Source: a bacterium
Lineage (GTDB): Bacteria; Zhuqueibacterota; Zhuqueibacteria; Residuimicrobiales; Residuimicrobiaceae
Reading direction: 5' to 3'
DNA length: 64,000 nucleotides
Assembly: GCA_029565685.1 (NCBI GenBank)
Contig: JAKQNR010000022.1
Coordinates: 556,035 to 620,034 of the forward strand
Both the position numbers and the translations under genes were made by a program. Shown piece after piece: positions 8,587-60,267 of the stretch. The notes under the pieces are model-generated. The model was given only the letters and a program-made list of their open reading frames with translations, was not told the origin of the DNA and did not search any database. How positions within the stretch are numbered: the first letter of the stretch is position 1; each line of letters starts with the position of its first letter.

Positions 8587-8759
8587 ACAGGAAAAATTGG
8601 ATCAAGCCGGCGCTCGGATTGCTTCTGGGCGGTCTGGCGGGCTTTGCTTACTATTATTTTATCGGCTGCCGCAGCGGCGCATGCCCCATCACCGGCAATC
8701 CGCTTATCAGCACCGCCTATGGCTCGCTGTTAGGCGGCCTGATGACCGTTGGCAAATGA
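8583..8759 (+). CDS. DUF6132-like small membrane protein (58 aa)
   Basis: MNRKNWIKPALGLLLGGLAGFAYYYFIGCRSGACPITGNPLISTAYGSLLGGLMTVGK. ATGA overlap with the oxidoreductase stop. The CxxxxC pattern is typical of small proteins encoded beside CoADR/rhodanese genes. Below the ORF-track size cutoff. Confidence 0.5.
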   Translation: MNRKNWIKPALGLLLGGLAGFAYYYFIGCRSGACPITGNPLISTAYGSLLGGLMTVGK

Positions 8760-8810
8760 GCAGCCGACTTTACCGCCGTCGTTCACACCAGGGGGTATCA
8801 TCACACTTTG

Positions 8811-9722: not shown

Positions 9723-9797
9723 ATGCCACTCCGTCGGCTGTTTGTCGATGGATTTGTCCGTTTTCTCTTTATACAGACAAACTCATGCTGGTGCGCA

Positions 9798-39109: not shown

Positions 39110-39141
39110 GATAAAACAAGAAACCGCCCCGGAAGGCGGCT
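39110..39141 (-). terminator. Rho-independent terminator after tRNA-Val, upstream of thrS
   Basis: Minus strand reads CCGCC-TTCCGG-GGCGG followed by TTTCTTGTTTT. Confidence 0.45.
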
Positions 39142-39162
39142 GTGACAATGGGTGATACGGTG

Positions 39163-39236
39163 TGGGCGGTACTGGAATTGAACCAGTGACCCCTTGCATG
39201 TCAAGCAAGTACTCTAACCAGCTGAGCTAACCGCCC
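39163..39236 (-). tRNA. tRNA-Val (anticodon GAC)
   Basis: GGGCGGTTAGCTCAGCTGGTTAGAG... Anticodon loop TTGACAT. T-loop TTCAATT. Confidence 0.8.
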
Positions 39237-39319
39237 CAGTGTTGCTTACACCTCCATGATGGTCATTTAAAAAAAAAGCGTTCCTGGCGGTAACGCTCTT
39301 CTTGATCAACCATCCCTTG

Positions 39320-39405
39320 TGCCGAGGGCCGGAATCGAACCGGCACGGACTTTGCAATCCGAGGGATTTTAAGTCCCTTGCGTCTACCATTTCCGCCACC
39401 CCGGC
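39320..39405 (-). tRNA. tRNA-Leu (anticodon TAA)
   Basis: GCCGGGGTGGCGGAAATGGTAGACGC... with a long variable arm. Anticodon loop CTTAAAA. Confidence 0.8.
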
Positions 39406-39424
39406 TCCTGCGGCCTCACAAGTA

Positions 39425-39500
39425 TGGAGGCGGCGATCGGAATCGAACCGATGCATAGAGGTTTTGCAGACCTCCGCCTTAGCCACTTGGCTACGCCGCC
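39425..39500 (-). tRNA. tRNA-Cys (anticodon GCA), CCA encoded
   Basis: GGCGGCGTAGCCAAGTGG... Anticodon loop CTGCAAA. 3' terminal CCA present. Confidence 0.8.
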
Positions 39501-39513
39501 GCACGATTCTTTG

Positions 39514-39585
39514 AGCGGGAGACGGGACTTGAACCCGCGACCCCAACCTTGGCAAGGTTATGTTCTACCACTGAACTACTCCCGC
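39514..39585 (-). tRNA. tRNA-Gly (anticodon GCC)
   Basis: GCGGGAGTAGTTCAGTGGTAGAACA... Anticodon loop TTGCCAA. Confidence 0.85.
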
Positions 39586-39748
39586 TTGCAAGGTTTAATA
39601 TAAATATATTTTGATCTTTATGCAAGTATTTTTTTAAAAAACGTCGATTTTCTGCCATTCTGTTGTGCATTTTTTATTTTACGCACTCCTGAACGTTTGA
39701 GGGTATGTCCAAGCGTCTATCATGAGTGGGGAAAAACGTTAAGATTCT

Positions 39749-39985
39749 GTGGTGTGGAGGTGCGTTACGTCCTATTCAACCGCTAAAACGATGCTGACAC
39801 TGATTATAACCTGTGAGGCATGCGGGCTCGTCGATCGGTATCAGGCAGAGGATGAGTCGGAAATTGCCAGGCTTGTTCAGGCCTATAGCTGTCCCAACCA
39901 TTGCGACAAAAAATATTGCAGCTACATCAGTGTGGGGCAAATTATACTTTCAAACCAGCGACCTGCCTTTCCCCGTGTGGCGTAA
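39749..39985 (+). CDS. Hypothetical Cys-rich small protein (78 aa; possible zinc ribbon)
   Basis: 'CEACGLVDRY...CPNHCDKKYC'. Antisense to the tRNA cluster. Stop is followed directly by the bidirectional terminator. No clear RBS. Coding status uncertain. Confidence 0.3.
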   Translation: MVWRCVTSYSTAKTMLTLIITCEACGLVDRYQAEDESEIARLVQAYSCPNHCDKKYCSYISVGQIILSNQRPAFPRVA

Positions 39986-39990
39986 ACACA

Positions 39991-40030
39991 GAAAAAGGCT
40001 GATGAAATATATTCATCAGCCTTTTTCTTG
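39991..40030. terminator. Bidirectional rho-independent terminator
   Basis: A-run, then GGCTGATGAA-ATATA-TTCATCAGCC perfect 10-bp stem, then T-run. Lies between the small-ORF stop (+) and the tRNA-Ala 3' end (-). Confidence 0.7.
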
Positions 40031-40104
<74 letters not shown>

Positions 40105-40166: not shown

Positions 40167-41366
40167 CTAACATTCGGCCGACAGCTCTCGTGCCTGACGT
40201 ACAAGCTGCGCCGCTCTCTCCAGGGCCAGCTCCAGCGCTTCGCGACCCGGCCCTCCCCCTTGCACCAGAGTGGCCTCCCCTCCTCCCCTGCCGTCGATCA
40301 TGGGCAGCACGGCTTTAAAAACCGGACGAAGATCGAGTTGATCCCTGGAATTGGCAAAGACCAGATAGCCCTGCTCCCTCGCTGCGGCCAGCAGATAGAT
40401 TCCGGGCTGTTTTTTGCACGCAGCCACCGCTATTCGGCGAAGGTCTTCCATGGAAAGCTCCGGAAACAACTGCACGACCACATCCGTCTGAGCAGCCCGT
40501 TCGCAGAGTTCGGCCATCGCCTGATCGGCCTGCGCACGACTGTGCTGCTGCAAGACTTTGCGCATCTCTTTGTTCTCAGCGAGTATTTTTTCGACCTGGA
40601 ACGTCAGTTGATCCGCTCCGGTAGTCAATGTGTCGCTCAACGTTCTGATGATCTGATGCTCTCTGCAGAATTCCTGCCAGCTCCGCCGACCGGCGACAAA
40701 GTTCACCCGCCAATGACCGCGAATGCGCTCAGCAGCCAGCATTTTGATCAGTCCCACCTGGGCTGTACTGCGGACATGTGTGCCGCCGCAGGGATCCACG
40801 TCCAGTCCGGCTATTTCCACCAATCGAACCGATTCATCCAACGCGATCTTTTTACGCACCGCCCGATCGTTCGCCTGCTCCGGGGTGACGAAAAAAGAAT
40901 CCACTGCGCGATTCTCCCAGACCACCTGGTTGGCTTTCTCTTCAACCTGCCGAATGATCTCCTGGGTGAGATCGGGAACGTCGATCTCGATGGTAGAAAC
41001 CTCTTCGCCTAGATGAGAGGCCAGTGTGGAGATTTTAAACAACGCACTGAAACAGCCGGCCAAAATATGAAAGGCCGTATGCTGCTGCATAAAATCAAAG
41101 CGCCGTTGCCAGTCGATGCATCCTTCGACCGCGCCATCCTGCAGAGGTGAAGATAACAGATGCCAGATTTCGCCATCCTGATATTGGACATTGTGCACAG
41201 CGATCCCGTTCAGCCAGCCGGTGTCGTGCATTTGTCCGCCTGAAGTAGGATAAAAACAGGTTTGATCCAGCACCACCGCGGGGCGCCCGTCTATCACGCC
41301 GGACTGCATCACACGAGCAGAAAAGTGGGTTTGATAAGCATCTCTAAAATACAATCGTTCCGTCAC
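40167..41366 (-). CDS. AlaX-type alanyl-tRNA editing protein (AlaRS editing-domain homolog)
   Basis: 'HTAFHILAG...' and 'DVDPCGGTHV' are the HxxxH / CxxxH zinc motifs of the AlaRS second-additional (editing) domain. GTGA overlap with the upstream exonuclease gene. Confidence 0.75.
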   Translation of the reverse strand: MTERLYFRDAYQTHFSARVMQSGVIDGRPAVVLDQTCFYPTSGGQMHDTGWLNGIAVHNVQYQDGEIWHLLSSPLQDGAVEGCIDWQRRFDFMQQHTAFHILAGCFSALFKISTLASHLGEEVSTIEIDVPDLTQEIIRQVEEKANQVVWENRAVDSFFVTPEQANDRAVRKKIALDESVRLVEIAGLDVDPCGGTHVRSTAQVGLIKMLAAERIRGHWRVNFVAGRRSWQEFCREHQIIRTLSDTLTTGADQLTFQVEKILAENKEMRKVLQQHSRAQADQAMAELCERAAQTDVVVQLFPELSMEDLRRIAVAACKKQPGIYLLAAAREQGYLVFANSRDQLDLRPVFKAVLPMIDGRGGGEATLVQGGGPGREALELALERAAQLVRQARELSAEC

Positions 41367-42604
41367 AAGGACTCCTTCGCCACAGATGAGATCTTGGCCT
41401 GCTTGTGCAGAATGCGGGTTTCCCGTTTACGCAGATCATGGAGAAAATACAGATAGTTTTTTTCCGGCTGCAGCTCCATCAGGGTCTCTGCATGCGTCCT
41501 GGCCCTGCGGATAACCGAAAGCGCTGCCGAATAATCCCTGCACCGGTGCTCATAGTATTTGATCAACTCTAGACAGGGATCGGTCGAGAAAGAGCCGCTT
41601 GTGTTCAGCAGCGACAGCCAGATCTGTTCCGCCTCTTGATACCGCTTCAGCCGTTTCAGATTCCAAGCCTTGCGCAGTTGCATTTGTCGGTGTTCAGCCC
41701 CTGAACTGCCGTCCTCTGCCTCACACGCCTCGCTGGCCTGTTCATACAAGCCCAAATGCTCATAGGTTCGAGCGACGCCCATTCGATGATATGGAACAGC
41801 GCCGCCGCTGCGACGGAAAACCTGTGCAGCTCGAACCAGCAGGCGCAGCAGAGAGATCAGATCCAGGGCGTTGTGCTGAAACACCGCCTTGAGCGGGGTT
41901 AAATCCCGAGTCTGCAGGCTGTCGAAATAGAGAGAGGGGATCCGCTCACCGGGCACATCCGAGGTGCGTCGAAAGCCGAGCACCACCTGCTCCATGCTGC
42001 TTAGCCGGCCGTCAGGGACAAACGGACGCCACAACCGCCTGCTGGTGTGCAACAGGTCCAGATGCAAAAACCGGTTCCAGTCCAAAGAAACCCGATTTAA
42101 TATACATCGATTGTGCAACAGTGGAAGATCAAAGGTTTTGCCGTTGTAGGTCATCAGGCCGGTTACGTCCTCCAGCCATTCAACCAAGCCGGTGAGCATC
42201 GCACGCTCCTGAAAAAAATCGTGCATAAAGAACTGCCGCACCAGCACAGAGGTCTGCTGCAAGCGGGCCACGCCGATCAAAAAAGCGCAAGTTCCGGCGC
42301 CGCCGGCCAAGCCGGTGGTTTCGGTGTCGATCCATGCAGTATGTAAGAGGTTGAATTGGTTTAAAATCCGGTTTTTGCCGATGCAGGCGAAATCATGCGG
42401 TTGCAGATCCAGAATGGCCCGCAGTTCCGGCCAATCTTGAAAAGAGAATGTTTTCTCCCGCAGCCAATAATCGCCTGCGCAGGTGCTTCTGCGTTCCAGC
42501 CCCAGCGCCTCGATTCCGACTAACCCATCCCTGCCAGCCGGTTGCTCTCTATTCGATGGCGCTGTTTGCTGCAGCGTGCGCAGTTTTTCGATAACAGATG
42601 TCAT
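41363..42604 (-). CDS. MrfB/YprB-like RNase-H-fold (DnaQ-like) 3'-5' exonuclease with TPR-like C-terminus
   Basis: 'AWIDTETTGLAGGAGTCAFLIG' is a DEDD exo-I motif. Downstream partner of a DUF1998 helicase, as in B. subtilis yprA-yprB (mrfAB). Confidence 0.65.
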   Translation of the reverse strand: MTSVIEKLRTLQQTAPSNREQPAGRDGLVGIEALGLERRSTCAGDYWLREKTFSFQDWPELRAILDLQPHDFACIGKNRILNQFNLLHTAWIDTETTGLAGGAGTCAFLIGVARLQQTSVLVRQFFMHDFFQERAMLTGLVEWLEDVTGLMTYNGKTFDLPLLHNRCILNRVSLDWNRFLHLDLLHTSRRLWRPFVPDGRLSSMEQVVLGFRRTSDVPGERIPSLYFDSLQTRDLTPLKAVFQHNALDLISLLRLLVRAAQVFRRSGGAVPYHRMGVARTYEHLGLYEQASEACEAEDGSSGAEHRQMQLRKAWNLKRLKRYQEAEQIWLSLLNTSGSFSTDPCLELIKYYEHRCRDYSAALSVIRRARTHAETLMELQPEKNYLYFLHDLRKRETRILHKQAKISSVAKESL

Positions 42605-42628
42605 GGGGCTTTACCGATCCGTCCGGAT

Positions 42629-44938
42629 TTAGGTGAGCTGAGCCATAAAGGACAACAATAAAAGTCCGCCGGCCTTGCCGGTCTCTCCCACTTCAAGGGC
42701 CGGCCCGACGCAGGATGGACAGCCGTTTTTACACGAACAGGCTTGAACGAGATCATAACCCGCCTTTGCGACCTCTTGATGGATCTGATACAGCTTTTTG
42801 CAATATCCCACTCCTCCGGGATACACCTCCCAGATAAAAATGGTGGGCAATTGAGAATGCGCAGCGCGCATCATGGGCATGACCGACAGATCGCGGGGAT
42901 CCGTCATCAGATACAGCGGCGCCACGTTCGCCAGCACGTTGGCCGCGGCTTTGAGCGCATCACCAAACTCCTGCTGCGGCATGTTCAGCTCTTCGTAGAG
43001 ATGATCCGGAAATCCAAACCAGAATCCCTGCGTGTGCATGGTCAGTTCCGGAAGAGCGATTTTAGCCCAGCCCACGTTCTCGTGAGTATGAAATTTTATT
43101 TTTTTATACATCGTGGCAATGCTGGTCACCGCCACCTCTCCCCAACCGGCGCGGCCGGCACCGATCTGCCGCTCTTCGCTTATCTCAAGAAGCTTCAAAT
43201 CCGATTTGAGCTGGGCGTCGGTGTAGTAATCCACGCTGACCTGATGTACGTAGGCTTTTCGCCGCGGCCAGTCCAAATGGTCTACATGATATTGCCGGCT
43301 CTCATGCATATAGATAGCGCCGTCATGCAGCATGAGCGGCGCGGCAAACAGGTCCAGTTCTCCGATCACCTTTTCTTCCGTCGTGGTTTTGTCGATGATC
43401 ACCACATTTTCTTCAGCAGCGCTGCGCAACGACACGGCTTCAGCCGGATAGACTTCAGCCATCCAATGCCAACGATCTTCAGAGAGGTGAAGAACACGGT
43501 TCTCCTGTAAAAAGCTCAGGATTTCCTGAGTGCTGTCAACGCCGCCAGTTTGCCTCCAGCTTTCGCCGAAACGCTCAGCCGTAGTGAACGGCAGTTCAAA
43601 TGCAGCGCACTTGATGTGGCTGAGCAGAATCAGCAGATTGTCCGGATTCAGCAGACCAGCCTCCGGCGATTGACTGAACAGATACTCCGGATTGCTCATC
43701 AGATACTGCTCCAGCGGAGCCGATGAGCCGATGAGAATCGCCACCGAGGTCTCGTTGCGCCGGCCTGCCCGGCCGGCCTGCTGCCAGGTGCTGGCGATCG
43801 TCCCGGGATATCCAGCCAGAATGCAGGTCTGCAATTGGCCGATATCGATGCCGAGCTCCAGCGCATTGGTGCCGACCACCCCGAGAATGGTCCCCTCGCG
43901 CAATCCCTTTTCAATCTCCCTGCGTTGCAGCGGCAGATAGCCGCCGCGATAGCCGCGCACCAACTGGGGAGACTTTTTGAGACGGCGCATGATCTCTTTC
44001 AAATAGGTCACCAGAATTTCCACCCGCAACCGGCTTCTCGCGAACACGATGGTGGGAATATCCTGGGCGAGAAAACGGGCGGCGAGGCTCTGCGCCTCCT
44101 TGATGTAAGACCGCCGGATGCCCAGCTCCTTGTTCACCACCGGCGGATTGTACAGAATAAAATGCTTGACGCCGCTGGGCGCTCCGTTGCTATCGATGAG
44201 ATGCATGGGTTCTCCGGTAACATGTTCGGCAAATTCCAGCGGATTGGCGATAGTCGCTGAACAGCAGATGAACAGCGGCCGGCTGCCGTAAAATCGGCAA
44301 ATGCGTTTCAGGCGCCGAATCACGTTCGCCAGGTGACTGCCGAAAACGCCGCGGTAGTTGTGAATTTCATCGATGACAATATAGCGCAGGTTTTCGAACA
44401 GCTTGACCCAAAGCGTATGGTGGGGCAGTATGCCGGTGTGCAGCATGTCCGGATTGGTGACCACAATATGGCCGGAAGTGCGGATGGCCTTGCGCGCTGT
44501 GACCGGGGTATCTCCATCAAAAGTATAACTCCTGATGTCAAAAGAGAGTTGCGGCGACAACAGGGCGACGACGCTGTGCAATTCAGCCACCTGGTCCTGC
44601 GACAGCGCTTTCGTGGGAAACAGATAAAGGGCCCGACTGTCTGGCTGCTTTAAAACCGCATTCAAAACCGGCACGTTATAGCAGATGGTTTTACCGGATG
44701 CCGTGGGTGTGACGATCACCGTATTGCGCTCTTGCAGGATTGCCTCGATGGCCGCAGCCTGATGAGAGTAGAGCGATCGAATGCCATGAGCCTGCAAAGC
44801 GTTCTTGAGCCGACAGTCGAGTGCTTCTGGATATTCAGCCCATACCGGCGGCCTTGCCGGGAGCTCTTTCCACAACGAGACCTTTTCCATGAAGCTCTGG
44901 TCCCGCTTCAGGTAATCCAGCAATTGATCGATGGTCAT
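42629..44938 (-). CDS. MrfA/YprA-like DEAD/DEAH-box helicase with C-terminal DUF1998 zinc finger
   Basis: Walker A 'TPTASGKT'. 'DEIH' box. Motif VI 'QQAGRAGRR'. C-terminal 'ACSCKNGCPSC' four-Cys DUF1998. Start at the MTIDQLLDYL ATG (44938) gives an ATGA overlap with the upstream gene. The ORF-track start 45136 would overlap that gene by 200 nt. Confidence 0.8.
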   Translation of the reverse strand: MTIDQLLDYLKRDQSFMEKVSLWKELPARPPVWAEYPEALDCRLKNALQAHGIRSLYSHQAAAIEAILQERNTVIVTPTASGKTICYNVPVLNAVLKQPDSRALYLFPTKALSQDQVAELHSVVALLSPQLSFDIRSYTFDGDTPVTARKAIRTSGHIVVTNPDMLHTGILPHHTLWVKLFENLRYIVIDEIHNYRGVFGSHLANVIRRLKRICRFYGSRPLFICCSATIANPLEFAEHVTGEPMHLIDSNGAPSGVKHFILYNPPVVNKELGIRRSYIKEAQSLAARFLAQDIPTIVFARSRLRVEILVTYLKEIMRRLKKSPQLVRGYRGGYLPLQRREIEKGLREGTILGVVGTNALELGIDIGQLQTCILAGYPGTIASTWQQAGRAGRRNETSVAILIGSSAPLEQYLMSNPEYLFSQSPEAGLLNPDNLLILLSHIKCAAFELPFTTAERFGESWRQTGGVDSTQEILSFLQENRVLHLSEDRWHWMAEVYPAEAVSLRSAAEENVVIIDKTTTEEKVIGELDLFAAPLMLHDGAIYMHESRQYHVDHLDWPRRKAYVHQVSVDYYTDAQLKSDLKLLEISEERQIGAGRAGWGEVAVTSIATMYKKIKFHTHENVGWAKIALPELTMHTQGFWFGFPDHLYEELNMPQQEFGDALKAAANVLANVAPLYLMTDPRDLSVMPMMRAAHSQLPTIFIWEVYPGGVGYCKKLYQIHQEVAKAGYDLVQACSCKNGCPSCVGPALEVGETGKAGGLLLLSFMAQLT

Positions 44939-47322
44939 ACAGTCTCTTTTAAAAGATAAATGGTTCCCGAGCCGCCGTCCACTTTGACCATGTCGCCTGG
45001 CTTGATCAGAGCGGTGGCTTGGGCCACGCTGGTGACACTGGGAACGCCGAATTCCCGAGCCAAAATAGAAGCATGGGACAGAACACCGCCAACCTCTAGA
45101 ACCAGAGCGGAAATCTGGTGAAATACCGGTGTCCACGCCGGATCAATAGAGCGGGCGATGAGAACGCTGTCCTTTGGAGCAGCAAAAGCCTGGTCACAGG
45201 TGAACGCGATGTAGGCAGGCCCCAAAGCGATCCCCCTGGAAACAGGGACACCCTTAAAAATCTTTTGAGATGAAAGAGAGCGATGATTACTGGCGGCAGT
45301 GATCCATTGGTTTAAAAAAGCCTTCCTTTGTTGAATGATGGAAGCATAGATTTGTGCAGAGTTTGCGATGGTTGCGTCAGCCAGTTCATTTTTAGTTAGA
45401 TAAAAAACATCTTGTGCTGCCTTCAGCAGACCTTGCTGCTGAAGTTGCTCAGCCATGTGCAGAACCACCCGTCTACTCTGCGCTAAAATACGCTGCCATA
45501 GATCCCGTTGATTTTCCCGCAGGAGCGTAAAAATTTGTGCACGGCTCAAAAGATAAGAGAAAACTTTGGAATATATCCATCGGGAAAGGAAATGATGCGA
45601 GGCGGCGATTTGCTTGGCGCACTCCAGCTCAGCTTCTTTTCTCTCCTGAATGGCGTTGAGCAGAGATTTGCCGTTGTTCGATTCTTCCTGCGCAGTGCGC
45701 AGACGCTTACCGAAATCAACGATTCGGCTTTTCTTTTCAGCCCAGGTCGGATAGCTTATGTCCAAACTTTCGGAGCGATGGCCATATAGACGGAAATATT
45801 CATCCCAATTCTCCGGCCTATTGTATCGGCTATTCTGCAATCTGATCAGATGAAGGTTGGCAAGAACTGTTTGATTGTTTTCCAGGCCGGAGAGCAGCTT
45901 TTGAGTCAAGCCCAAACGGTCACGAGAGGGCAGCGCCAGTCCGATCATCTTGGAAAGCAATTCATAATAGAGATCAGCAAATGTAATGCTCCAGCGGTGA
46001 ATCGATAAAAATTGATCACTTAAATCTATGGTTTTATAAAGATAATTTATCAGCCCAGAATATGTGAGTTTTTTAAAATCCATCTCATGCATTACTTTAA
46101 GTGTCAGCAGGCAAGTACGGTTAAAGGTACCCCATTTGTGCAGATGAAAAAACGGCAGCCAATCTAAATTTTTCCCTAAAAGTCTGGTGAGGAGATAAGG
46201 GGCGGATTTAACCAGAGCTACCCACCATACCTGAGACCGATGCATCAGGCCTAGGCTGTTCTTTTTGTCCTCAGATATAAAACGCAATGGAATAATGGAA
46301 TACAAGGATTGGAGCACGCGCAATTGACTGAAAGGAATGCCTGAGCTTATTTTGGTAAGGTGCTTTGTTTTCGCCAGATTATCAAATCCAAGAAACCAGA
46401 GAGGATCGCGGAACGCATTCTTTTCCAGAATATCGCGGATAAGACTCCAACCCAGCACCGAAACAGGGCCGCTGAATCGTTCGACAAAGAAATAATTGAC
46501 ATACTCTACTCGGTTTTCGTCCCACAAGCGCTGTCCATGCGTAAACGATGCCGTAATCGGTCTTGCCTGCAAAATCCACAGTTGGTTTTGTGAATCGATG
46601 GCCCACTCGATATCCTGAGGGCCGCCTAGCAGTTTTTCAATTTCCATACCGATGCAAAAAAGAGAGCGCAACAGTCCGGTAAAATCCGCATTCGACAAAC
46701 GCCCCTTCAACTCATGCGTCGAAGGATGTCCAGACGATCGATCAAATTCGACGCGATATGGCTCCTCCTTCCCCTCCATCAAGCGCTCCCCGGTCTGATG
46801 AACATATTCAACCAGCATCTGGTCGTCGGCGGAACTGGGATTTTGCGTAAATAAAACGCCTGCAAACTGCGCGGCGATCATAGGCTGCAGGATCACCGCC
46901 ATCGCTGGATCGACGTGCCGGACCCTGCCTGGATAAGCGTTCTTGACCGACGCAAATCCGGATTGAAGAACGATGTAAATGGCATCGAGGATCTGCTGAT
47001 GCTCTTTCAGATGAAGCATTGATTTAAATTGCCCGGCAAAAGAGTAACGGGCCGCATCTTCGGCCAGCGCAGAGGATCGTACGGCATAGCCTGGTTCTGA
47101 GGGGTGTTTGCTGCAAAACTGAGCGATGATCTCCAGGAGGCGGCGTTCTGCGGCGGCTGTACGGGAGGTTAAGGTGGAATAGATATAGGTCGGCAAGACC
47201 ACAAAGTCAGGCACCTGGATGCCGTGGTGTTTGAGTAGGGCCAGGCGCGATGCTTTTCGTCCTGTCCAGTCAGTGCGGAGTGCGGCTTTTGTGTGTGAGC
47301 CAATTCTCCAGGACCTAGCCAT
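44935..47322 (-). CDS. PEP-utilising three-domain kinase (rifampicin-phosphotransferase/PEP-synthase-like: PPDK_N ATP-grasp + central domain + phospho-His swivel domain)
   Basis: N-terminus 'GRKASRLALLKHHGIQVPDFVV' is PPDK_N-like. C-terminus 'ALVLEVGGVLSHASILAREFGVPSVTSV...GDMVKVDGGSGTIY' is a PEP-utilisers mobile domain with the catalytic His. The length and domain order match the RPH architecture. Start placed at the MARSW ATG (47322), 4 nt after the upstream stop. Confidence 0.7.
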   Translation of the reverse strand: MARSWRIGSHTKAALRTDWTGRKASRLALLKHHGIQVPDFVVLPTYIYSTLTSRTAAAERRLLEIIAQFCSKHPSEPGYAVRSSALAEDAARYSFAGQFKSMLHLKEHQQILDAIYIVLQSGFASVKNAYPGRVRHVDPAMAVILQPMIAAQFAGVLFTQNPSSADDQMLVEYVHQTGERLMEGKEEPYRVEFDRSSGHPSTHELKGRLSNADFTGLLRSLFCIGMEIEKLLGGPQDIEWAIDSQNQLWILQARPITASFTHGQRLWDENRVEYVNYFFVERFSGPVSVLGWSLIRDILEKNAFRDPLWFLGFDNLAKTKHLTKISSGIPFSQLRVLQSLYSIIPLRFISEDKKNSLGLMHRSQVWWVALVKSAPYLLTRLLGKNLDWLPFFHLHKWGTFNRTCLLTLKVMHEMDFKKLTYSGLINYLYKTIDLSDQFLSIHRWSITFADLYYELLSKMIGLALPSRDRLGLTQKLLSGLENNQTVLANLHLIRLQNSRYNRPENWDEYFRLYGHRSESLDISYPTWAEKKSRIVDFGKRLRTAQEESNNGKSLLNAIQERKEAELECAKQIAASHHFLSRWIYSKVFSYLLSRAQIFTLLRENQRDLWQRILAQSRRVVLHMAEQLQQQGLLKAAQDVFYLTKNELADATIANSAQIYASIIQQRKAFLNQWITAASNHRSLSSQKIFKGVPVSRGIALGPAYIAFTCDQAFAAPKDSVLIARSIDPAWTPVFHQISALVLEVGGVLSHASILAREFGVPSVTSVAQATALIKPGDMVKVDGGSGTIYLLKETV

Positions 47323-48295
47323 TTTGCTGCAGCAACTCGCTGATATAAAAAACGTTCTCCTTGGGCGTTTCATAGGGAAGAACGCCGGTGCCGATGCAGA
47401 CTTTTTCCCGCTGTGCAGCCAATGCAAGCATACGCCGGACTTCTCCGGCGATCTCCTCACGCGTGCCCTCGGATACAATGCGCGAGATCATATTGATTCG
47501 AATCATCACTTCAGGGTGCGCCTTGGCTTTATCTAGAAACTGCTGTTGGTCGGTCTCAGCCGGACAGATCAGATAGGTGGCGCCGGTGGAACAGAGTTCA
47601 TTCACCAGCAAAGCCGTATCGCCGCCGATGATCAACGCCGGCGTGAATCCCTGAATGCGGCCGGCCAAGGCAACCAGTTGAGAAAGCGCAGGCAACTCTA
47701 TCTGCGTAAAGATATCCGGCGAAATGAGCGGCGGAGTGGCCGCTGATTCAAATAGAGTGACTTTGAGTCCAGCATCTTGAATGGCCTGCAAGAATCCACG
47801 CTGATAGACCGCCAATCGTTGCAGACCCTGTGCCAACAGATCCGCCTTTACCAGCGCGGCATAAAGCAGGGTTTCAAAACCAAGCAGGACCGAGGCCATG
47901 GAAAACGGTCCGCTGACCGGTATGCGCACATCGGCTTCCGGGAAACGGGCTTTCAGGCGTTGCCCTACGCGGATCAGCATACCGATGCGGCCGGCCGTGT
48001 TCGGATCAAACGGTTCGAGTTCCAACAGCTGCGTGGGATCGTGAAACAGCGGTACGGTGATAGTCGGGATGCCGAATCCTTCCGTCGGGGTCACCTGGGC
48101 GCCATAGGCCTCCGCCTCTGGATTATAGATATCGATGCCCACCGTGACCGGAGTGTGATGGTAGAGCTCATAGGCCGCGGCATGAGCCTGATAAAGCAGA
48201 TCCTCGTTTCGCGAAACCTCCCAGGGCGTGCGATGAATGACAGCAGCCGCATGTTCATAGACCGCTGGCTGAAAAAAAAGTGCGGGGTCTCGCAT
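47315..48295 (-). CDS. Uroporphyrinogen-decarboxylase (URO-D) family protein, paralog 1
   Basis: URO-D/MtaA-like TIM-barrel signature with a C-terminal GxG-rich region ('IGTGVLPYETPKENV'). ATG 48295 gives an ATGA overlap with paralog 2. Confidence 0.65.
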   Translation of the reverse strand: MRDPALFFQPAVYEHAAAVIHRTPWEVSRNEDLLYQAHAAAYELYHHTPVTVGIDIYNPEAEAYGAQVTPTEGFGIPTITVPLFHDPTQLLELEPFDPNTAGRIGMLIRVGQRLKARFPEADVRIPVSGPFSMASVLLGFETLLYAALVKADLLAQGLQRLAVYQRGFLQAIQDAGLKVTLFESAATPPLISPDIFTQIELPALSQLVALAGRIQGFTPALIIGGDTALLVNELCSTGATYLICPAETDQQQFLDKAKAHPEVMIRINMISRIVSEGTREEIAGEVRRMLALAAQREKVCIGTGVLPYETPKENVFYISELLQQNG

Positions 48296-49440
48296 CAATA
48301 GTCCCTTGTTTTGTGATATTCATCGAGCATGGCCATATAATTGTCGTATTGGCTGCCCACAGCGATGGAATGGCTGGCGCCAAGGATAAAGCGTCCCCCT
48401 TCTTTGGCGTAGGCCATGGCGGAGCGAACGTCGCGGCGCACATCCTCCGGCGTGCCGCTGATCAAATGTTCGACGGCAACGCCGCCCCAGAGGGTGATCT
48501 TGTCGCCATAGCGCTGTTTCACTCGAGCCAAATCCATGTCAGCGGTCGGCTGAATGGACTGATAGGCGTCATAACCGATCTCGATAAAATAGTCCAGCAG
48601 ACGCCAGACATTGCCGCAGCAATGTTTCATGATTCTTTGACCATAGGTCGATTTGATATGGCGGACCCGCTCCTTGTTGGCGTCAAGATAAAAATCGCGA
48701 AACATGGCAGGACTGATAAAAGGTCCGGTCTTGTACGCGAAATCGTGTCCCCAGAGTACGGCGTCGGCCTTGGGGTGGACCCATCGTTCATCCGCTCGTT
48801 TATACTGGTTGGCGTAGAATTGAACCGCCTTGCGGATCAGCTCCGGGTCTTCCATTAAAGTGATCATGCCCTTTTCCATGCCGCCCGGCAATACAATGCC
48901 GATCTCGCCTCCAGAGGGGCCGCAGATGAACTTTTCACCATGAAAGGTCTCGATCACGGTGTTCAGAATATGCCAGGAACGTTCATCGAGCTGCGGCAAA
49001 GGCGGCTCGCCTTCAAACTCCTCATGGCGAAAAACCTTTTCCTGCATGACCGGATCATGAATGCAGGTGATATCGGCGGTAAAATCAGAATATTTGTAGA
49101 TTCGCCCTTGCCGGTCCTGCCAGGTGTTTTCATCCAATCGCTGCGGCGGATCCTCGATGGGCAGAGGGATCTCCCAAGTAGCCATGGGAAAGGTAATGAT
49201 GTCGAGATCCAGTTTGCGATGCAGGGCGATATGATCTTCCAGGTAGCTTTGCACCACTTCATCCTGACGCCCCTCCCAAAAGGCGATCTGCGATTTGGCT
49301 TTGGCCCGCAAATAGGTTTCATGACCGAGAATCTTTTCCACAGTATCGAAATCGACGGCGAATTCGCCGATGGGAACCCGGTCAGGAAGACGGCCGGAGA
49401 GCACGGCATGTACCCGCTCTTTCGCAGTCATCGATACCAC
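48295..49440 (-). CDS. URO-D family protein, paralog 2
   Basis: 381 aa. Similar fold signature ('KHCCGNVWRLLDYFIEIGYDAYQSIQP'). Overlaps paralog 3 by 13 nt. Confidence 0.65.
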   Translation of the reverse strand: MVSMTAKERVHAVLSGRLPDRVPIGEFAVDFDTVEKILGHETYLRAKAKSQIAFWEGRQDEVVQSYLEDHIALHRKLDLDIITFPMATWEIPLPIEDPPQRLDENTWQDRQGRIYKYSDFTADITCIHDPVMQEKVFRHEEFEGEPPLPQLDERSWHILNTVIETFHGEKFICGPSGGEIGIVLPGGMEKGMITLMEDPELIRKAVQFYANQYKRADERWVHPKADAVLWGHDFAYKTGPFISPAMFRDFYLDANKERVRHIKSTYGQRIMKHCCGNVWRLLDYFIEIGYDAYQSIQPTADMDLARVKQRYGDKITLWGGVAVEHLISGTPEDVRRDVRSAMAYAKEGGRFILGASHSIAVGSQYDNYMAMLDEYHKTRDY

Positions 49441-50495
49441 CCCTCTTGCATCGCCGTCTCGTACATGGCCAGCACATTTTCAGTGGGGGAGTTGTCCTGG
49501 ATTTCATGCGTAGGCGCCAGAGCGTAACCGCCGCCCGGCATCATAATCTCCAGCGTGGATTGGACGATTTTGCGGACCTGGTCCACAGTGCCAAAGGCCA
49601 ATTCGCCGGCGGTGGAAATCATGCCATGGAAAGCCAGTTTGGCGCCGTAGCTCTTTTTAAGAAAGGCCGGCGCCATGTCTTGAGCCTCAGGTTGCAGGGT
49701 GTCGACTACAGAGACGCCCATTTCGATAAAGTCATTGAACGCCCAGCTGCTGGAGCCGCATGAATGTATCATCACCGGCAGGTTGTAAGACTTGGCCAGA
49801 TCGATGAATTTCTGATGTCTGGGACGAATATGCTTGCGATAGAGGTTGAGGCTGATCGTCGGACCGCGCTGAGTGCCCAGGTCTTCGCCCATCCAAAAGA
49901 GATCGACGGCGCCCTTGCCGGCCTCCAGGATGCGTTCCATGATCTGCAGCCACAGGTTGGTGCAGCGATCGATCAGCAGCAAACCAGCCGGTTCATCCAG
50001 CATAAGATCGACCAGCACCTGTTCCATGGTGCGCAGCATGCCTATGGAATTGATAATGTCGCCGACACCAGGGTGCCCGACGACAACGCAATAGTCTTTG
50101 TATTGACGGCTTAAATGGGCGATGGCGGAATAGTCGAAATCGTCCGGATTCGGCAGCTTCCAATTGGCGACGGTTTCGATGTCGGCGTTTTGCAGCGGCC
50201 AGGTGCAATAGTCCCAATAGCCGCCCCAGTCGTGTTGAACCCAGCGTCGATGGCGGCCAAAGTTATCGACGGTGATGCCCGGCAGATCCTGGTAGAGTTT
50301 TTGCCCGATGTAAGGCGCATCGATGGCACGAAAGTCAACGCCCAATCGTTGCCGCAAGGCCTCATCGTCGTTCTGGTTAAGGCCGAAATGATCTTTGAGC
50401 CGGGCATCGATAGCCGGATTGTAGAGATAATTAATCGGCACACGATCCGGAATCGCATGGCCGAATGCGGTTAACACACGGTCTTTGGATTTCAT
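49428..50495 (-). CDS. URO-D family protein, paralog 3
   Basis: 355 aa. 'MIHSCGSSSWAFNDFIEMGVSVVDTLQPE' parallels the other two paralogs. First gene of the operon, preceded by a 342-bp intergenic region. Confidence 0.65.
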   Translation of the reverse strand: MKSKDRVLTAFGHAIPDRVPINYLYNPAIDARLKDHFGLNQNDDEALRQRLGVDFRAIDAPYIGQKLYQDLPGITVDNFGRHRRWVQHDWGGYWDYCTWPLQNADIETVANWKLPNPDDFDYSAIAHLSRQYKDYCVVVGHPGVGDIINSIGMLRTMEQVLVDLMLDEPAGLLLIDRCTNLWLQIMERILEAGKGAVDLFWMGEDLGTQRGPTISLNLYRKHIRPRHQKFIDLAKSYNLPVMIHSCGSSSWAFNDFIEMGVSVVDTLQPEAQDMAPAFLKKSYGAKLAFHGMISTAGELAFGTVDQVRKIVQSTLEIMMPGGGYALAPTHEIQDNSPTENVLAMYETAMQEGWYR

Positions 50496-50837
50496 ATTCT
50501 AACTTACAAAAAAAATAGAGAAAAAGAAAAGAATTTATTTTGACGATACGAGGAAGGAATTAAAAAATGCACCGAGGCGTTGGTGAGCAGCATAGATCAT
50601 CGTGGGCATCGACCGCACCTCATCCCATCGACGCTGCTTCGATTAGTGGAGGCAGCGGAATCAAAAAGTCGGCGCCATGTTCTGCTGTTGGATAGATCCG
50701 TGGATGATCGGCGATGCATTTGACGCCGCCGGCCAACCATTTAGAATCAATCCATTTTGGGCAAGAGCTTTTGCAGAACAGTAAAAATTGTTTCAGCCCA
50801 AGGATGCAAAAAGGGTATCACAAAAGGATCAAAAAGG

Positions 50838-52328
50838 TTATGGCTTTTTTGCTTCATTGATCGCCCGCGCGCGCAACCTTCCTAGAAAACCCTTAATCTC
50901 TGGATTGAGATCGCTTAACATCTTGATGTAGCTTTGTTCCGCGAAATCGACCTCCACCTGGCGGATGTTGACCGGATCGATTCTTAGGGCCTTTTGGCAT
51001 TCCTCATAAGCAGGATAGGTTATGGCGGTGACGCCAGGGAAAACCCCATTATCGATCAGGGTCTTGGCGAGCAGCAACGCGATATAATAGTTTCCCAGAT
51101 CATTGGGATGAACATGGTCGATGAACAAGGATGGCTCAGGATAGGTTCGCTGCGAATGTTGGACAAAATAGGATTCCACATCCGCCAGCATTACAGAATG
51201 CCGGGAGGCCAGATCGCGGCAGATCATAGGAAAATAAGTGCGTGCGCGGAACGGCAAAAGGTCGTAATCTTTAGCCTGCAGCAACGAAAGGCCGGCGCTT
51301 TCATAATCTTTCTGCCGCACGAACGCCATACCGGCATGATAACTGACGCTGGCGTTGGTGGAATCCAATTGGTAGAGACGCTGCCAAATTTCCAGGGCCT
51401 TTACCATATCGCCCGAATTAAACGCGGTTTTGGCTTGTGCGTCGAGCGAGTCCCAGTTGACGATGGTGCGTTTATCGCCAACAAACTGATTTTTTGAAAT
51501 AAAAGGCGGAAAAGTCCAATTGGAAACCGGAGTGCACAGCATGACCTGAATATCATGTTTGCGTGCCAGCCGGATCAGGTCTTCTAGATTGCGGCGATAA
51601 TTATCGGCTACCACCTGATTCAAAGGATCCTGAAACGCCACCGTATTGCGCTGGCTCCATTGCAGGTCGTTCGCCGTCCGGATGCTGCTGCGGGGGGTGA
51701 TCCAGCGTATCGCTTTCAGCATTCCCTGATAGAGAAAAGTCCGGCGCAGGCCCATAAACAGGGCGTACAAAGTCCGATTCTGATACAGCGCGGTTTTTTC
51801 CTTGGCAATGACAAATTCGTTGGGGCCGAAAAATTCATTATGACCGGAATAGACGATCACCAGATCCGGCTGATGCTTGATCAATGAAGAAAACACGTCC
51901 AAGACGTTCAGGCTGTTGAGGGCGTTGCAGCTGGCGTTGAGCAACTCGATTTCAGGCAGCGACCGGTTATACTGCAAAACTGCACGCAGATAATTCGGGA
52001 AAGAGGTCGGACACTCGAATTGGGGAAAGGTGTTGTAGGGATAGCCCGCCGGGGTGGATTCGCCGACGACAAAAATGCGGAAGCGTCCTCCCTTTTCCGC
52101 ATGAATGGCCCGATTGCTCGCCGAGGTCGGGAATAGGTCTTTTTTTTCAAAGAGAAAAAAATCGTTGAAATAGGATTGATTGAGATAAAAAGTGCCCTTA
52201 TTGCGATCCCGCTTCAACGGCTCAAAACGCTGGGTTGCCCGGTTGGCTAGAGACTCCAGGCCCAACCACAGTGCCAACGGTAGAATGAACAGGATCGAAT
52301 AAAAGAGTATTTTTTTTGATCGCTTCAC
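50838..52328 (-). CDS. SGNH/GDSL-type hydrolase-fold membrane protein with TPR region
   Basis: N-terminal TM. 'IFVVGESTPAGYP' (block I Ser). 'VIVYSGHNEF' (block II/III). 'IDHVHPN' (block V Asp/His). TPR-like C-terminus. GTGA overlap with the lipoprotein gene. Confidence 0.65.
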   Translation of the reverse strand: MKRSKKILFYSILFILPLALWLGLESLANRATQRFEPLKRDRNKGTFYLNQSYFNDFFLFEKKDLFPTSASNRAIHAEKGGRFRIFVVGESTPAGYPYNTFPQFECPTSFPNYLRAVLQYNRSLPEIELLNASCNALNSLNVLDVFSSLIKHQPDLVIVYSGHNEFFGPNEFVIAKEKTALYQNRTLYALFMGLRRTFLYQGMLKAIRWITPRSSIRTANDLQWSQRNTVAFQDPLNQVVADNYRRNLEDLIRLARKHDIQVMLCTPVSNWTFPPFISKNQFVGDKRTIVNWDSLDAQAKTAFNSGDMVKALEIWQRLYQLDSTNASVSYHAGMAFVRQKDYESAGLSLLQAKDYDLLPFRARTYFPMICRDLASRHSVMLADVESYFVQHSQRTYPEPSLFIDHVHPNDLGNYYIALLLAKTLIDNGVFPGVTAITYPAYEECQKALRIDPVNIRQVEVDFAEQSYIKMLSDLNPEIKGFLGRLRARAINEAKKP

Positions 52329-53320
52329 GAATTGGCCGCAGACGATGAGGTGACGGGTTCAAAAACTTTTAAATGTTCCAGGGGATGCGAGACCATCAGG
52401 TAAAAGCGGTCGCCCGCGACGACGAATTTATGATACCAGGGCGCCCAGGGCTCGGCATCGATGCCGATGGTGACGGCCTGAGGAAGTACAAAGGACTTGA
52501 TCCGGTTGAATTTGAAATCATACTGGTCTATGGTTTGGCAAAAAATCGTTTCGTTGGTGAGCTCCGGATTGACTCGCAGAATAAAGATCCCCTGCTCATT
52601 CACATACATGTCTTCCATATGGAAAACAAAGGTCGTGGTCTCTGAATTGCGTATCGGCTCCAGTTTCTTTTTCAACAGCAGCTTTCCAGAGCGATCATAA
52701 AGAAATGCAGAGTCTAAAAGTGTTGGAACATAGGCGATATCGCCCGTGGGCGTGAAGGCGGCAAAAGCGAAATCCACACCGGCTAACTGGTAAAAAGCGC
52801 TGCGCGGCGAACGAAAGGTGTTCAGGAGCGCGCCGGAATCATCGTAGATTTCCAGGCAATAGCCGAATTGGGCTTTATCGCCCATACGGTTGACGAGGAT
52901 CAGCCCATCCGGAGATACCGTGACAGCGCCGCGTCCACCGATAGGGATGCTTTTGCGGAATTGTCCGTCCAGCGAGTAAAACTGCAACGAACCGAGATTG
53001 TGCAGGATCAGGGTGGTGTCGATAATTTGCACAGTGGATGGACGGTTGACATAACCATCCCCCGAGCCATAGGCGATCAGCTCTTTGATAAAAGCTCCGG
53101 TGGCGTCGAATTTGCTCACAGTGGATTTGTCCACATCGAGAATGTAGAAATTTCCGGTCCGGTCCATGGCCAGGTGTTTGACTCTGCTGAAAAATTCCTC
53201 CGTAGCGGCGGCTGGTATTTGCAGATGAAAATCGGTTTGATTTAATGGGATGCTCGGCGTTTTGCCGCATGAAGCGAATAAAGCCGCGAAGAGGATGAGG
53301 AGCGGTATTTTTTTCAACAT
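52325..53320 (-). CDS. Lipoprotein, predicted beta-propeller (NHL/TolB-like repeats)
   Basis: Lipobox 'LFASCGK'. Repeated 'G..Y.LD' beta-strand units. No catalytic motif recognised. Confidence 0.55.
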   Translation of the reverse strand: MLKKIPLLILFAALFASCGKTPSIPLNQTDFHLQIPAAATEEFFSRVKHLAMDRTGNFYILDVDKSTVSKFDATGAFIKELIAYGSGDGYVNRPSTVQIIDTTLILHNLGSLQFYSLDGQFRKSIPIGGRGAVTVSPDGLILVNRMGDKAQFGYCLEIYDDSGALLNTFRSPRSAFYQLAGVDFAFAAFTPTGDIAYVPTLLDSAFLYDRSGKLLLKKKLEPIRNSETTTFVFHMEDMYVNEQGIFILRVNPELTNETIFCQTIDQYDFKFNRIKSFVLPQAVTIGIDAEPWAPWYHKFVVAGDRFYLMVSHPLEHLKVFEPVTSSSAANS

Positions 53321-53444
53321 AAGGCCTATCTCATCAATACGGGTATAAAAAACGGGAGATTCGCAAGCGAAGATCGGTTGCGAATCCCCCGCCGTTTATA
53401 TAGGCTTCTGCGAGCAATGAAATCCTCGCAGAAGCCATTATACC

Positions 53445-54497
53445 TTAGAACTTGAACGAAACCGACAGACGATTCACATCATCCATCAGGTCGAATTGCG
53501 ACCAGCTGTAATCGACGACCAGATCGTGGCCGCTGTAAGGCAGCACGATGCCGGCGCCCAGAGACAGGCCTTCGTCGGTGCGAGCATAGGTCTTTTGATC
53601 GTACCAGTGATCGCGAGTGACTTTTTCAACAATCTGGTAAGAGGAGCGGGGACCAAACTCGTCCTTCATGCCCATATAGTTGAATTTGTAGCCGGCGCGA
53701 AAACTGATGTTTTTCAGCAAGGTGGCTTCTAGACCGCCAAGAATCATCTGATCGGCGTCCAACGGTTTGGTGGCGTCCACATAACCTTTGAACGAGAAAT
53801 CGTCGGATTGGATCATGCTCATGGAAACACCAAAGCTGAACACCATCGGCAGGCTGAACGGCACGTAATAGTACTCGAGATCGCCGCCCAGATTCTGGAT
53901 GCGGGCGCCGATGGCCAGATCGCGGTAGCCGAGCATATAGATGGCGCCGAAATCGAAAGCCAAAGTTCCAACGGTTTCCACATCGATTTTCTCGCTGTAG
54001 TACTTAACCGTGGCGCCCATCGACAGTTTGTCGGTGAATTGTCTGGCATAGCTCAAGCCGATGACGGCGGAATTGTAATCGAACATGGCTGCGTCCGAAT
54101 ATTCCACTCCTTCCAGACCAGGCTGAACGTCGCGGTTGGCTTCGATATCATTGATGCCGGACATCAAGCCGCCCAGGGCCAGAGTTCCCCAGCTGCCAAA
54201 AGAGTGCGACACCGCAAACGCGTTGTGGTTGATGTCCGCAATCCATTTGTTGTAGGAAAAAGTAACCTGGGTTTCTCCTTCCGGCATAGAGATGCCGGCT
54301 GGGTTCCAAAATAACTGATTGACGTCGTTGGTCACAGTCGTGATGGCCGAACCGATACCGACCGCTTTGGCGCCGACGCCTACTTTCAGAATCGACGCGC
54401 CCGAGATTCCCGTTTTTTTCATAGTCTGCGGGAAGGCGGCAACGGCAAGCACCAGCAGAAAGACGACCAACAGCGTGGAGATTGATTTATGTCTCAT
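53445..54497 (-). CDS. PorV/PorQ-like outer-membrane beta-barrel (T9SS-associated shuttle-like)
   Basis: Signal peptide. 'GISGASILKVGVGAKAVGIGSAITTVTNDVNQLFWNPAGIS' is the family N-terminal signature. Terminal aromatic 'VSFKF'. Confidence 0.65.
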   Translation of the reverse strand: MRHKSISTLLVVFLLVLAVAAFPQTMKKTGISGASILKVGVGAKAVGIGSAITTVTNDVNQLFWNPAGISMPEGETQVTFSYNKWIADINHNAFAVSHSFGSWGTLALGGLMSGINDIEANRDVQPGLEGVEYSDAAMFDYNSAVIGLSYARQFTDKLSMGATVKYYSEKIDVETVGTLAFDFGAIYMLGYRDLAIGARIQNLGGDLEYYYVPFSLPMVFSFGVSMSMIQSDDFSFKGYVDATKPLDADQMILGGLEATLLKNISFRAGYKFNYMGMKDEFGPRSSYQIVEKVTRDHWYDQKTYARTDEGLSLGAGIVLPYSGHDLVVDYSWSQFDLMDDVNRLSVSFKF

Positions 54498-54538
54498 AGA
54501 GCATCTTCTCCTTCAAATAATAGGCTGTTTCATTAGAC

Positions 54539-57052: not shown

Positions 57053-57098
57053 CCTATTTCTCCTCTTATTGGCAATTTTTTAATTAGCCTGTTGCCGG

Positions 57099-60059: not shown

Positions 60060-60267
60060 ACTTTGAGTCCTCCAAATTTTTTGTTTTTGACTCGTTGGTA
60101 CTCTGTTTGAAAGAGTCACGTCCTGTACCGATTCGCCTGGTTGCCGGGCGCTGTGCGTCCCGGTAGTTCCAGCTCACTCTTTCTGCCTGTTGTACTCTCC
60201 TTTTCCTTCTCCTCCTTATGGTTTAGCTGATTAAGTTGATTAAATGAGTCTATTAACAGATATATGG

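Follow-up and report, generated by a model that had tools for sequence, protein, structure and literature searches.

An mrfA-mrfB repair operon of a KSB1 bacterium, probably assembled in layers, with an Rph-architecture dikinase gene directly upstream of mrfA

A 64,000-nucleotide stretch of contig JAKQNR010000022.1 (referred to as the window), from a bacterium assigned to the candidate division KSB1 by the names attached to its best homologues, carries a block of seven minus-strand genes (40167-50495) that includes those for the repair helicase MrfA and its partner exonuclease MrfB. Comparison with about 25 related loci indicates that this block is very probably a composite operon whose layers are built on an mrfA-mrfB excision-repair pair ancestral to KSB1. 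mrfA and mrfB form the stable unit, in most cases with a coupled alaX gene and a tRNA-Ala(GGC) gene after them. The second layer is a gene for a dikinase with the architecture of rifampin phosphotransferase (Rph), which lies directly 5' of mrfA and has descended with it vertically in three KSB1 clades, with clean deletions in some lineages. The third is a set of three URO-D family genes, which were placed ahead of the kinase gene in the sub-lineage of the window and became translationally coupled. This layered structure, combined with a mechanism in which a compound is detoxified and the damage it causes repaired, forms an explanation that as a whole, and weighted to the parts that are directly observed, is somewhat better supported than not. 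The linkage of such a kinase to MrfAB is apparently undescribed so far; seen in the genome context of one phylum, it varies a known repair operon by an accessory gene.

The kinase gene directly precedes mrfA in KSB1 genomes

A profile scan for the kinase across one genome per GTDB species gave 79 loci, onto which the proteins of the window were mapped. Twenty KSB1-type loci could be scored both for the kinase (identity of 35% or more) and for the mrfA start (L001, L003-L012, L014-L019, L022, L081 and L082). In all 20 the kinase gene precedes mrfA on the same strand at a spacing of -17 to +31 nt, and mrfB is next wherever the contig continues; loci L002 and L021 have the same order. In neighbour-joining trees the same three clades are resolved for the kinase, MrfA, MrfB and AlaX, which indicates vertical co-inheritance from a common ancestor. 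What lies upstream of the kinase varies: L019 has a GT5 glycosyltransferase gene there, clades B and C have a metallophosphoesterase-like (MPE) gene, and the window and L004 have the URO-D trio. The kinase-MrfA adjacency is kept through these changes of context. It is clear that the adjacency of kinase, mrfA and mrfB is conserved and not due to chance. An earlier interpretation of the window, made from its letters alone (the sequence-only reading), had proposed a survey for recurring Rph-like and URO-D neighbours of MrfA and had named chance juxtaposition as a risk; the survey disposes of that risk for kinase, MrfA and MrfB, whereas URO-D neighbours were found only in the window and its nearest relatives.

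The kinase is not present at every mrfAB locus. A look-up from the side of MrfA found six further homologues, 60-73% identical. Loci L083 and L091 have the order GT5-MrfA-MrfB-AlaX-tRNAs-thrS where their sister L019 has GT5-kinase-MrfA-MrfB-AlaX, and L084 has MPE-MrfA-MrfB-AlaX where L081 has MPE-kinase-MrfA-MrfB-AlaX. The absence of the kinase from L083, L091 and L084 is clean, with 20-30 nt between the flanking genes; L085, L086 and L090 hold solitary MrfA genes. These clean differences between presence and absence mean that the kinase is dispensable and was lost at least once inside clade A, and the comparison as a whole indicates that it is an ancestral but dispensable accessory of the mrfAB operon.

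The gene found 5' of the kinase in clades B and C (or 5' of mrfA in L084) encodes a lipoprotein-like, metallophosphoesterase-like protein and is split by gene callers. In 16 of 16 clade B/C loci (L081, at 8904-9929 with the TGA at 9084-9086; L005-L009, L012, L014-L018, L022, L023, L082 and L084; not in the window) an in-frame TGA follows a conserved H(T/S)NDxxGYxxPCG motif, and conserved protein sequence resumes directly after it. A small conserved hairpin, two of whose pairs show compensatory changes, lies around 20 nt 3' of the TGA. The codon is a candidate for selenocysteine, in a C-G-U motif.

The dikinase and the repair pair

The kinase gene (44935-47322, minus strand) encodes a protein of 795 aa. 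Pfam and profile searches detect an N-terminal PPDK_N ATP-grasp domain (126.5 bits), a weak Rph_4th match and a C-terminal PEP-utilizers swivel domain (73.3 bits); no PEP-utilizers_C match was obtained from Pfam, i.e. the protein is without the phosphoenolpyruvate (PEP)/pyruvate TIM-barrel domain. His750 (in GGVLSHASILAREFG), K23 and the D237-E239 block are invariant across 27 kinase orthologues, and His750 aligns with the swivel motif of Rph. An AlphaFold2 model built on these orthologues has a mean pLDDT of 82.5, and its best fold match in the PDB, found with Foldseek, is the full-length Listeria rifampin phosphotransferase 5HV1 (E 8e-31, about 900 aligned columns); identity to Rph in the structural alignment is 17-19%. 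The domain order and this full-length fold match bear out the three-domain Rph layout suggested in the sequence-only reading. The 795-aa protein is an Rph-architecture ATP-dependent dikinase, with an ATP-grasp domain, a helical central substrate domain and a His-bearing swivel domain. Its description as PEP-dependent was wrong; Rph-type enzymes use ATP (PMC4844700).

Scores against curated families place the protein at a distance from all of them. It reaches 186.6 bits against a cut-off of 999 for NF041857 and 127.5 against 1700 for NF000283, both Rph equivalogs; its scores for the NCBIfam Rph, PigC and RedH equivalogs are 5- to 8-fold under the cut-offs, and values of 160-219 bits are obtained against models with cut-offs of 740-999. 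For the PEP synthase model TIGR01418 the score is 159.6 bits, the cut-off being 739.75. An ordinary PEP synthase or pyruvate phosphate dikinase, the former of which had been named as the outcome that would overturn the assignment, was therefore ruled out by the missing TIM barrel and a score so far under the cut-off. In a phmmer comparison with the Rph structure 5FBS only residues 76-275 and 619-791 align, and the centre does not.

Two further approaches to the role of the kinase gave little. Fast evolution of the kinase was considered as a sign of an arms race and dropped; kinase identity of 35-39% is about that of MrfB (32-40%) at the same loci. No common neighbour theme hinting at a substrate was found at about 57 dikinase paralogue loci in other phyla, where the neighbours are lineage-specific: Planctomycetes, for example, have a beta-propeller membrane protein there, and Poribacteria have several genes of their own.

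The helicase gene (42629-44938, minus strand) encodes 769 aa with DEAD, Helicase_C and WHD_HRQ1 domains and a C-terminal MZB (DUF1998) zinc domain, whose cysteines are read in the translation as C-x-C...C-x-x-C in 'ACSCKNGCPSC'. It aligns over its full length with B. subtilis YprA (6ZNP; 870 bits, residues 13-751). The start at ATG 44938 is backed by orthologues of 767-773 aa and by the YprA alignment beginning at residue 13, so that the risk of a start elsewhere, which had been raised against the coupling, is not borne out. The neighbouring gene (41363-42604, minus strand) encodes a DnaQ-like 3'-5' exonuclease of 413 aa (RNase_H_2, 107.8 bits) which matches the exonuclease core structure 8UN9 with 114 bits; in that alignment the DEDDh catalytic residues are kept (DTETTGL, YNGKxFD and HNxxD). 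Its C-terminus appears helical and repeat-like on reading of the sequence, with no Pfam TPR match. Recognition of the two proteins as a MrfAB pair thus proves sound, and the alignments identify the helicase, over its full length, as an orthologue of MrfA of the repair branch, next to its MrfB partner. The MrfAB proteins of B. subtilis remove mitomycin C adducts, through a 3'->5' helicase and a 3'->5' exonuclease (bioRxiv 10.1101/426304; PMC7797055; PMC11194089). In a 2025 survey of YprA-family proteins, members of the repair branch are classed either as 'YprA only' or as associated with MrfB; the words kinase, phosphotransferase, PEP and pyruvate occur nowhere in the survey, and a literature search for YprA/DUF1998 proteins tied to Rph or PEP synthase-type proteins found no paper.

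The seven open reading frames lie head to tail, and a separate gene call on the identical ENA contig returned the same seven genes, in agreement with the positions given in the sequence-only reading. Most of its junctions were also read correctly, namely the 4-nt overlaps of kinase with mrfA (ATGA, 44935-44938) and of mrfB with alaX (GTGA, 41363-41366) and the 24-nt gap between mrfA and mrfB. Between the third URO-D gene and the kinase gene, where a 4-nt gap had been claimed, there is an 8-nt overlap (ATGGCTAG), with the kinase ATG at 47322 and the URO-D stop at 47315-47317. The 13-nt overlap claimed for the first and second URO-D genes requires a GTG start; with ATG 49431 the overlap is 4 nt (ATGA), and this is most likely the true start because orthologues of 378-379 aa and the gene caller agree on it. 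At the junction of the second and third URO-D genes (TTGATG, at 48295) the claimed 4-nt overlap holds if the latter starts at TTG and shrinks to 1 nt if it starts at ATG. An AT-rich spacer of 342 nt (50496-50837), whose length had been given correctly, lies upstream of the first URO-D gene; it is the sole long non-coding gap in 40167-50837 and the probable promoter region of the composite operon. A terminator scan returned 19 terminator-like sites, where 13.1 +/- 4.2 were expected; within the seven-gene block none is convincing, and the sole strong terminator-like hairpin (39122-39141) is 3' of the tRNA gene cluster described below.

AlaX, the URO-D proteins and their surroundings

The last gene of the block (40167-41366, minus strand) encodes an AlaX-L type alanyl-tRNA trans-editing protein of 399 aa, with an editing domain, tRNA_SAD (40.9 bits) and matches to tRNA-synt_2c and DHHA1. 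It scores 204.7 bits against the C-terminal half of an archaeal alanyl-tRNA synthetase and 172.7 bits, under the cut-off of 300, against the AlaXM equivalog, from which it differs in being of the longer AlaX-L type with a DHHA1 tail; no equivalog model for that type was matched. The zinc motifs HxxxH and CxxxH are read in the translation as HTAFH and CGGTH. The AlaX/MrfB overlap is 4 nt in most related loci, and AlaX follows MrfB in clades A and B and is absent from clade C. It adjoins MrfAB and tRNA-Ala(GGC) also in loci without the kinase. From this pattern AlaX is most likely an ordinary trans-editing factor that deacylates mischarged tRNA-Ala, carried along as a passenger in synteny with the tRNA-Ala gene; coupling within the operon alone therefore does not imply a common pathway.

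The tRNA-Ala(GGC) gene (40030-40104, minus strand; ARAGORN and Rfam) is 62 nt downstream of the alaX stop and is preceded by a promoter-like TTGACA-17-TAAAAT at 40143-40115. It is the first of five minus-strand tRNA genes (39162-40104) that fill the 1.1-kb interval between alaX and thrS, the others forming a Gly(GCC), Cys(GCA), Leu(TAA), Val(GAC) cluster (39162-39585, minus strand); thrS-infC-rpmI-rplT-pheST follow. The same five-tRNA array is found in L004, L019 and L083. A tRNA-Ala(GGC) gene comes after AlaX in L004, L019, L021, L083, L084 and L007, and directly after MrfB in L082, where AlaX is lacking, a distribution that identifies it as the conserved 3' anchor of the operon. In L084 (12821-14067) a phage-type integrase gene and then a Sipho_Gp157-like gene come right after tRNA-Ala(GGC), which appears to be an integration site in that genome.

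All three URO-D proteins exceed the Pfam cut-off of 23.9 bits: URO-D1 (49428-50495, 355 aa, H-S-C motif) with 50.7, URO-D2 (48295-49431, 378 aa with the ATG start) with 73.6 and URO-D3 (47315-48295, 326 aa), which covers nearly the whole profile, with 76.7; all are on the minus strand. They stay under the curated cut-offs, reaching at most 15.8 bits against 302.95 for HemE and at most 38.5 against 235.4 for MtaA/CmuA. An H-x-C motif is present in URO-D1 and URO-D2, which match MtaA/CmuA-type models weakly, and is missing from URO-D3, which has a weak match to MtaA 4AY7; for URO-D1 no PDB sequence match was found. By these scores all three are remote from any characterised enzyme. Among the related loci, L004 and L021 alone share the trio with the window. 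In L021, URO-D3 and the kinase are interrupted by two 100-nt stretches of N (9322-9421 and 10763-10862), which make the genes look like pseudogenes in tblastn output; this appearance was rejected as an artefact.

Orthologues of URO-D2, 64-70% identical, occur in other KSB1 genomes, Acidobacteria, Aminicenantes and others. In the three loci sampled (L087, L088 and L089, each at 8001-9140) their surroundings comprise a GH38 alpha-mannosidase, GFO/IDH/MocA, PfkB and SSF proteins, and a 3-keto-disaccharide hydrolase or RhaA; no kinase or MrfA was near. This 379-aa family is unusually conserved across phyla and is probably an uncharacterised, sugar-related URO-D subfamily. L087 and L088 also hold, some 6 kb away from their URO-D2 orthologue, a homologue resembling URO-D3 (35-36% identical). 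Since orthologues elsewhere live in carbohydrate-utilisation loci, the trio is probably a separate carbohydrate-related metabolic unit sharing a promoter. Upstream of the trio, L004 has a GH109/GFO_IDH protein and an AXE1 esterase, and the window has a GDSL-like esterase. The latter (496 aa, with TPR) belongs to a further run of minus-strand genes (50838-60119) that also encodes two Pfam-less proteins (331 and 837 aa), a weak PorV/DUF5723-like outer-membrane protein (350 aa) and a CarboxypepD_reg-domain protein of 1006 aa; these genes possibly serve the cell surface or the processing of glycans and would then have no part in repair.

Possible function and relation to known systems

The families suggest how the kinase-repair core might work. 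In the dikinase, ATP would be bound by the ATP-grasp domain and its beta-phosphate taken up by His750 of the swivel domain; a small molecule lodged in the helical central domain would then receive the phosphate on a hydroxyl group. The net reaction, ATP -> AMP + Pi + phospho-substrate, would be that of Rph and HpeHI. The characterised Rph-architecture enzymes all phosphorylate small hydroxylated molecules, namely rifampin, hydroxyphenylethanones, phenol and prodiginine precursors (PMC4844700, PMC12167813). MrfA would unwind and MrfB degrade the adduct-bearing strand, the two together removing bulky adducts. The most economical account of the linkage would then be a two-tier response to a hydroxyl-bearing natural product, DNA-reactive or otherwise toxic, in which the compound is inactivated and existing lesions are excised. 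A genuine functional link of this detoxify-and-repair kind between kinase and MrfAB is advanced only tentatively. The narrower proposal that an Rph-family dikinase is a third component of the MrfAB pathway in KSB1, one that by phosphorylation inactivates the very hydroxylated natural genotoxin whose adducts MrfAB remove, or acts on adducted DNA, seems on the unlikely side. The idea of the sequence-only reading, that a small molecule is modified and its lesions repaired, survives as a reasonable hypothesis for kinase and MrfAB only.

Several observations weigh against such a link. The sole evidence for it is gene order in one phylum; MrfAB-AlaX is retained without the kinase in at least three lineages; none of about 57 loci with kinase paralogues (Planctomycetota, Poribacteria, Chloroflexota, archaea and others) has MrfA within 10 kb; the central domain of the kinase shows no sequence-level match to the rifampin-binding domain of Rph (phmmer, 5FBS); and no damage-inducible regulatory site was identified. 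Furthermore, in clades B and C the entire Ack-Pta-NHL-OmpA-MPE-...-tRNA-Ala region is syntenic, and it takes in AlaX and an exported lipoprotein, neither of which is known to be connected with repair, so that adjacency and coupling are no guarantee of shared function. The main rival is pure synteny or hitch-hiking, in which the dikinase has a function unrelated to repair, e.g. phosphorylation of aromatics or xenobiotics for catabolism or resistance, and remains 5' of mrfA merely from ancestral gene order and slow rearrangement in KSB1. It is favoured by the clearly unrelated genes within the extended synteny of clades B and C, by the translational coupling of AlaX, with no known repair role, to MrfB, by the clean loss of the kinase where MrfAB stays (L083, L091, L084) and by the lack of any MrfA-linked paralogue outside KSB1. 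What speaks against it is that the kinase-MrfA adjacency has outlived at least two replacements of the upstream neighbour, and that operon-type spacing is kept in all 20 loci despite kinase identity of around 35%. Hitch-hiking is accordingly a serious possibility, if one that falls somewhat short of an even chance.

The other explanations fare less well. In the view of the sequence-only reading all seven genes form one module, in which the URO-D proteins and the kinase modify a natural product, MrfAB repairs the damage and AlaX takes part. Every junction in the window and L004 is indeed an overlap or short gap, and the two share the arrangement though the genes further upstream differ; yet the trio is missing from 17 of the 20 kinase-MrfAB loci, the URO-D2 orthologues (65% identity) lie in sugar-catabolic contexts of other phyla with no kinase or MrfA near, AlaX accompanies MrfAB irrespective of the kinase, and the kinase has been lost from like contexts. 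The comparative data thus appear largely to refute a single module, which is very improbable. A cassette for aromatics, in which O-demethylation by the URO-D trio (MtaA-type) precedes phosphorylation of the freed phenol by the dikinase, on the pattern of phenol or hydroxyacetophenone catabolism, and in which MrfAB and AlaX are unrelated, has equally little to recommend it. It would make sense of the weak MtaA/CmuA-type matches and H-x-C motifs of URO-D1 and URO-D2, and HpeHI-type and phenylphosphate-type dikinases do phosphorylate phenols (PMC12167813); but the constant partner of the kinase is MrfA and not URO-D, the URO-D2 orthologues adjoin glycoside hydrolases and sugar oxidoreductases rather than aromatic pathways, and no corrinoid protein is among the genes called within 10 kb, the whole window not having been scanned for B12-binding domains.

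A dikinase acting on a macromolecule, as a third repair subunit that phosphorylates a DNA lesion or end or regulates MrfA or MrfB, is improbable. Swivel-His enzymes can act on polymers or proteins, as do glucan water dikinase and enzyme I of the phosphotransferase system, and such precedents, the tight and vertically inherited coupling to mrfA and the strongly basic central domain (median pI 9.6 across the 27 MrfA-linked orthologues) would all suit this role. The basic pI does not discriminate as a sign of nucleic-acid binding, however: 61% of the paralogues outside KSB1 that are not linked to MrfA are also above 9. In addition the kinase is dispensable, and the members characterised in the literature cited above all act on small hydroxylated molecules. 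Finally, the block could be an anti-phage system of the YprA-helicase type, akin to DISARM, Druantia, Dpd and ARMADA, but this is scarcely credible. The MrfA helicase core (residues around 40-400) matches the SngC, BrxHI, DruE, DpdF and DrmA models in PADLOC; these matches are limited to the generic core, and the other six proteins of the block match no PADLOC model, on which grounds a defence identity was rejected. The helicase is moreover full-length and of the repair branch, in which the 2025 survey puts MrfB-associated helicases, and the locus is a vertically inherited housekeeping one (tRNA genes and thrS-infC-rpmI-rplT-pheST).

The MrfAB pathway, which works without nucleotide excision repair, was recognised only recently and is apparently lineage-specific in its function; a small-molecule dikinase tied to mrfAB through deep divergence in an uncultured phylum offers a concrete handle on it. 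The identity of the kinase substrate could reveal an environmental genotoxin against which MrfAB evolved. If detoxification and repair are indeed linked, the operon would be a further example in which a single transcript encodes both the inactivation of a drug and the repair of lesions. The block also suggests that translational coupling alone can join three functionally distinct layers, here sugar-type URO-D genes, a kinase-repair core and a tRNA-editing gene.

Compared with the MrfAB (YprA/YprB) system of B. subtilis, the KSB1 pair shares the orthology of the helicase, the DEDDh core of the exonuclease and the order of helicase then exonuclease in one operon; it differs in having an Rph-like dikinase gene 5' and a coupled alaX and tRNA-Ala(GGC) 3', partners which are unmentioned in the MrfAB papers and in the 2025 survey. 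AlaX itself resembles the free-standing AlaX-L editing proteins in its zinc-motif editing domain, tRNA_SAD and DHHA1/C-Ala-like tail, while its gene is unusual in being translationally coupled to a DNA exonuclease gene and directly 5' of a tRNA-Ala gene. The URO-D proteins have the Pfam URO-D fold in common with HemE and with MtaA, MtbA and CmuA, and two carry H-x-C, but none reaches a curated equivalog or subfamily cut-off.

The kinase shares its domain order, catalytic His and ATP-grasp residues with Rph (Listeria 5HV1/5FBS), HpeHI and PigC/RedH; it differs from them in sitting in a DNA-repair operon, to which no characterised member is so linked. A parallel in concept, a kinase alongside a helicase-like protein, is found in the rifamycin regulon of actinomycetes, where the drug-inactivating rph is deployed with helR, whose helicase-like product counters the effect of the drug on its target. 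HelR is a UvrD/HelD-like protein that protects RNA polymerase, unlike the KSB1 MrfA, which is a YprA-family DNA helicase. Furthermore, rph and helR are co-regulated but not translationally coupled and have no exonuclease partner, whereas in the KSB1 operon the kinase gene overlaps that of the helicase and the exonuclease gene follows.

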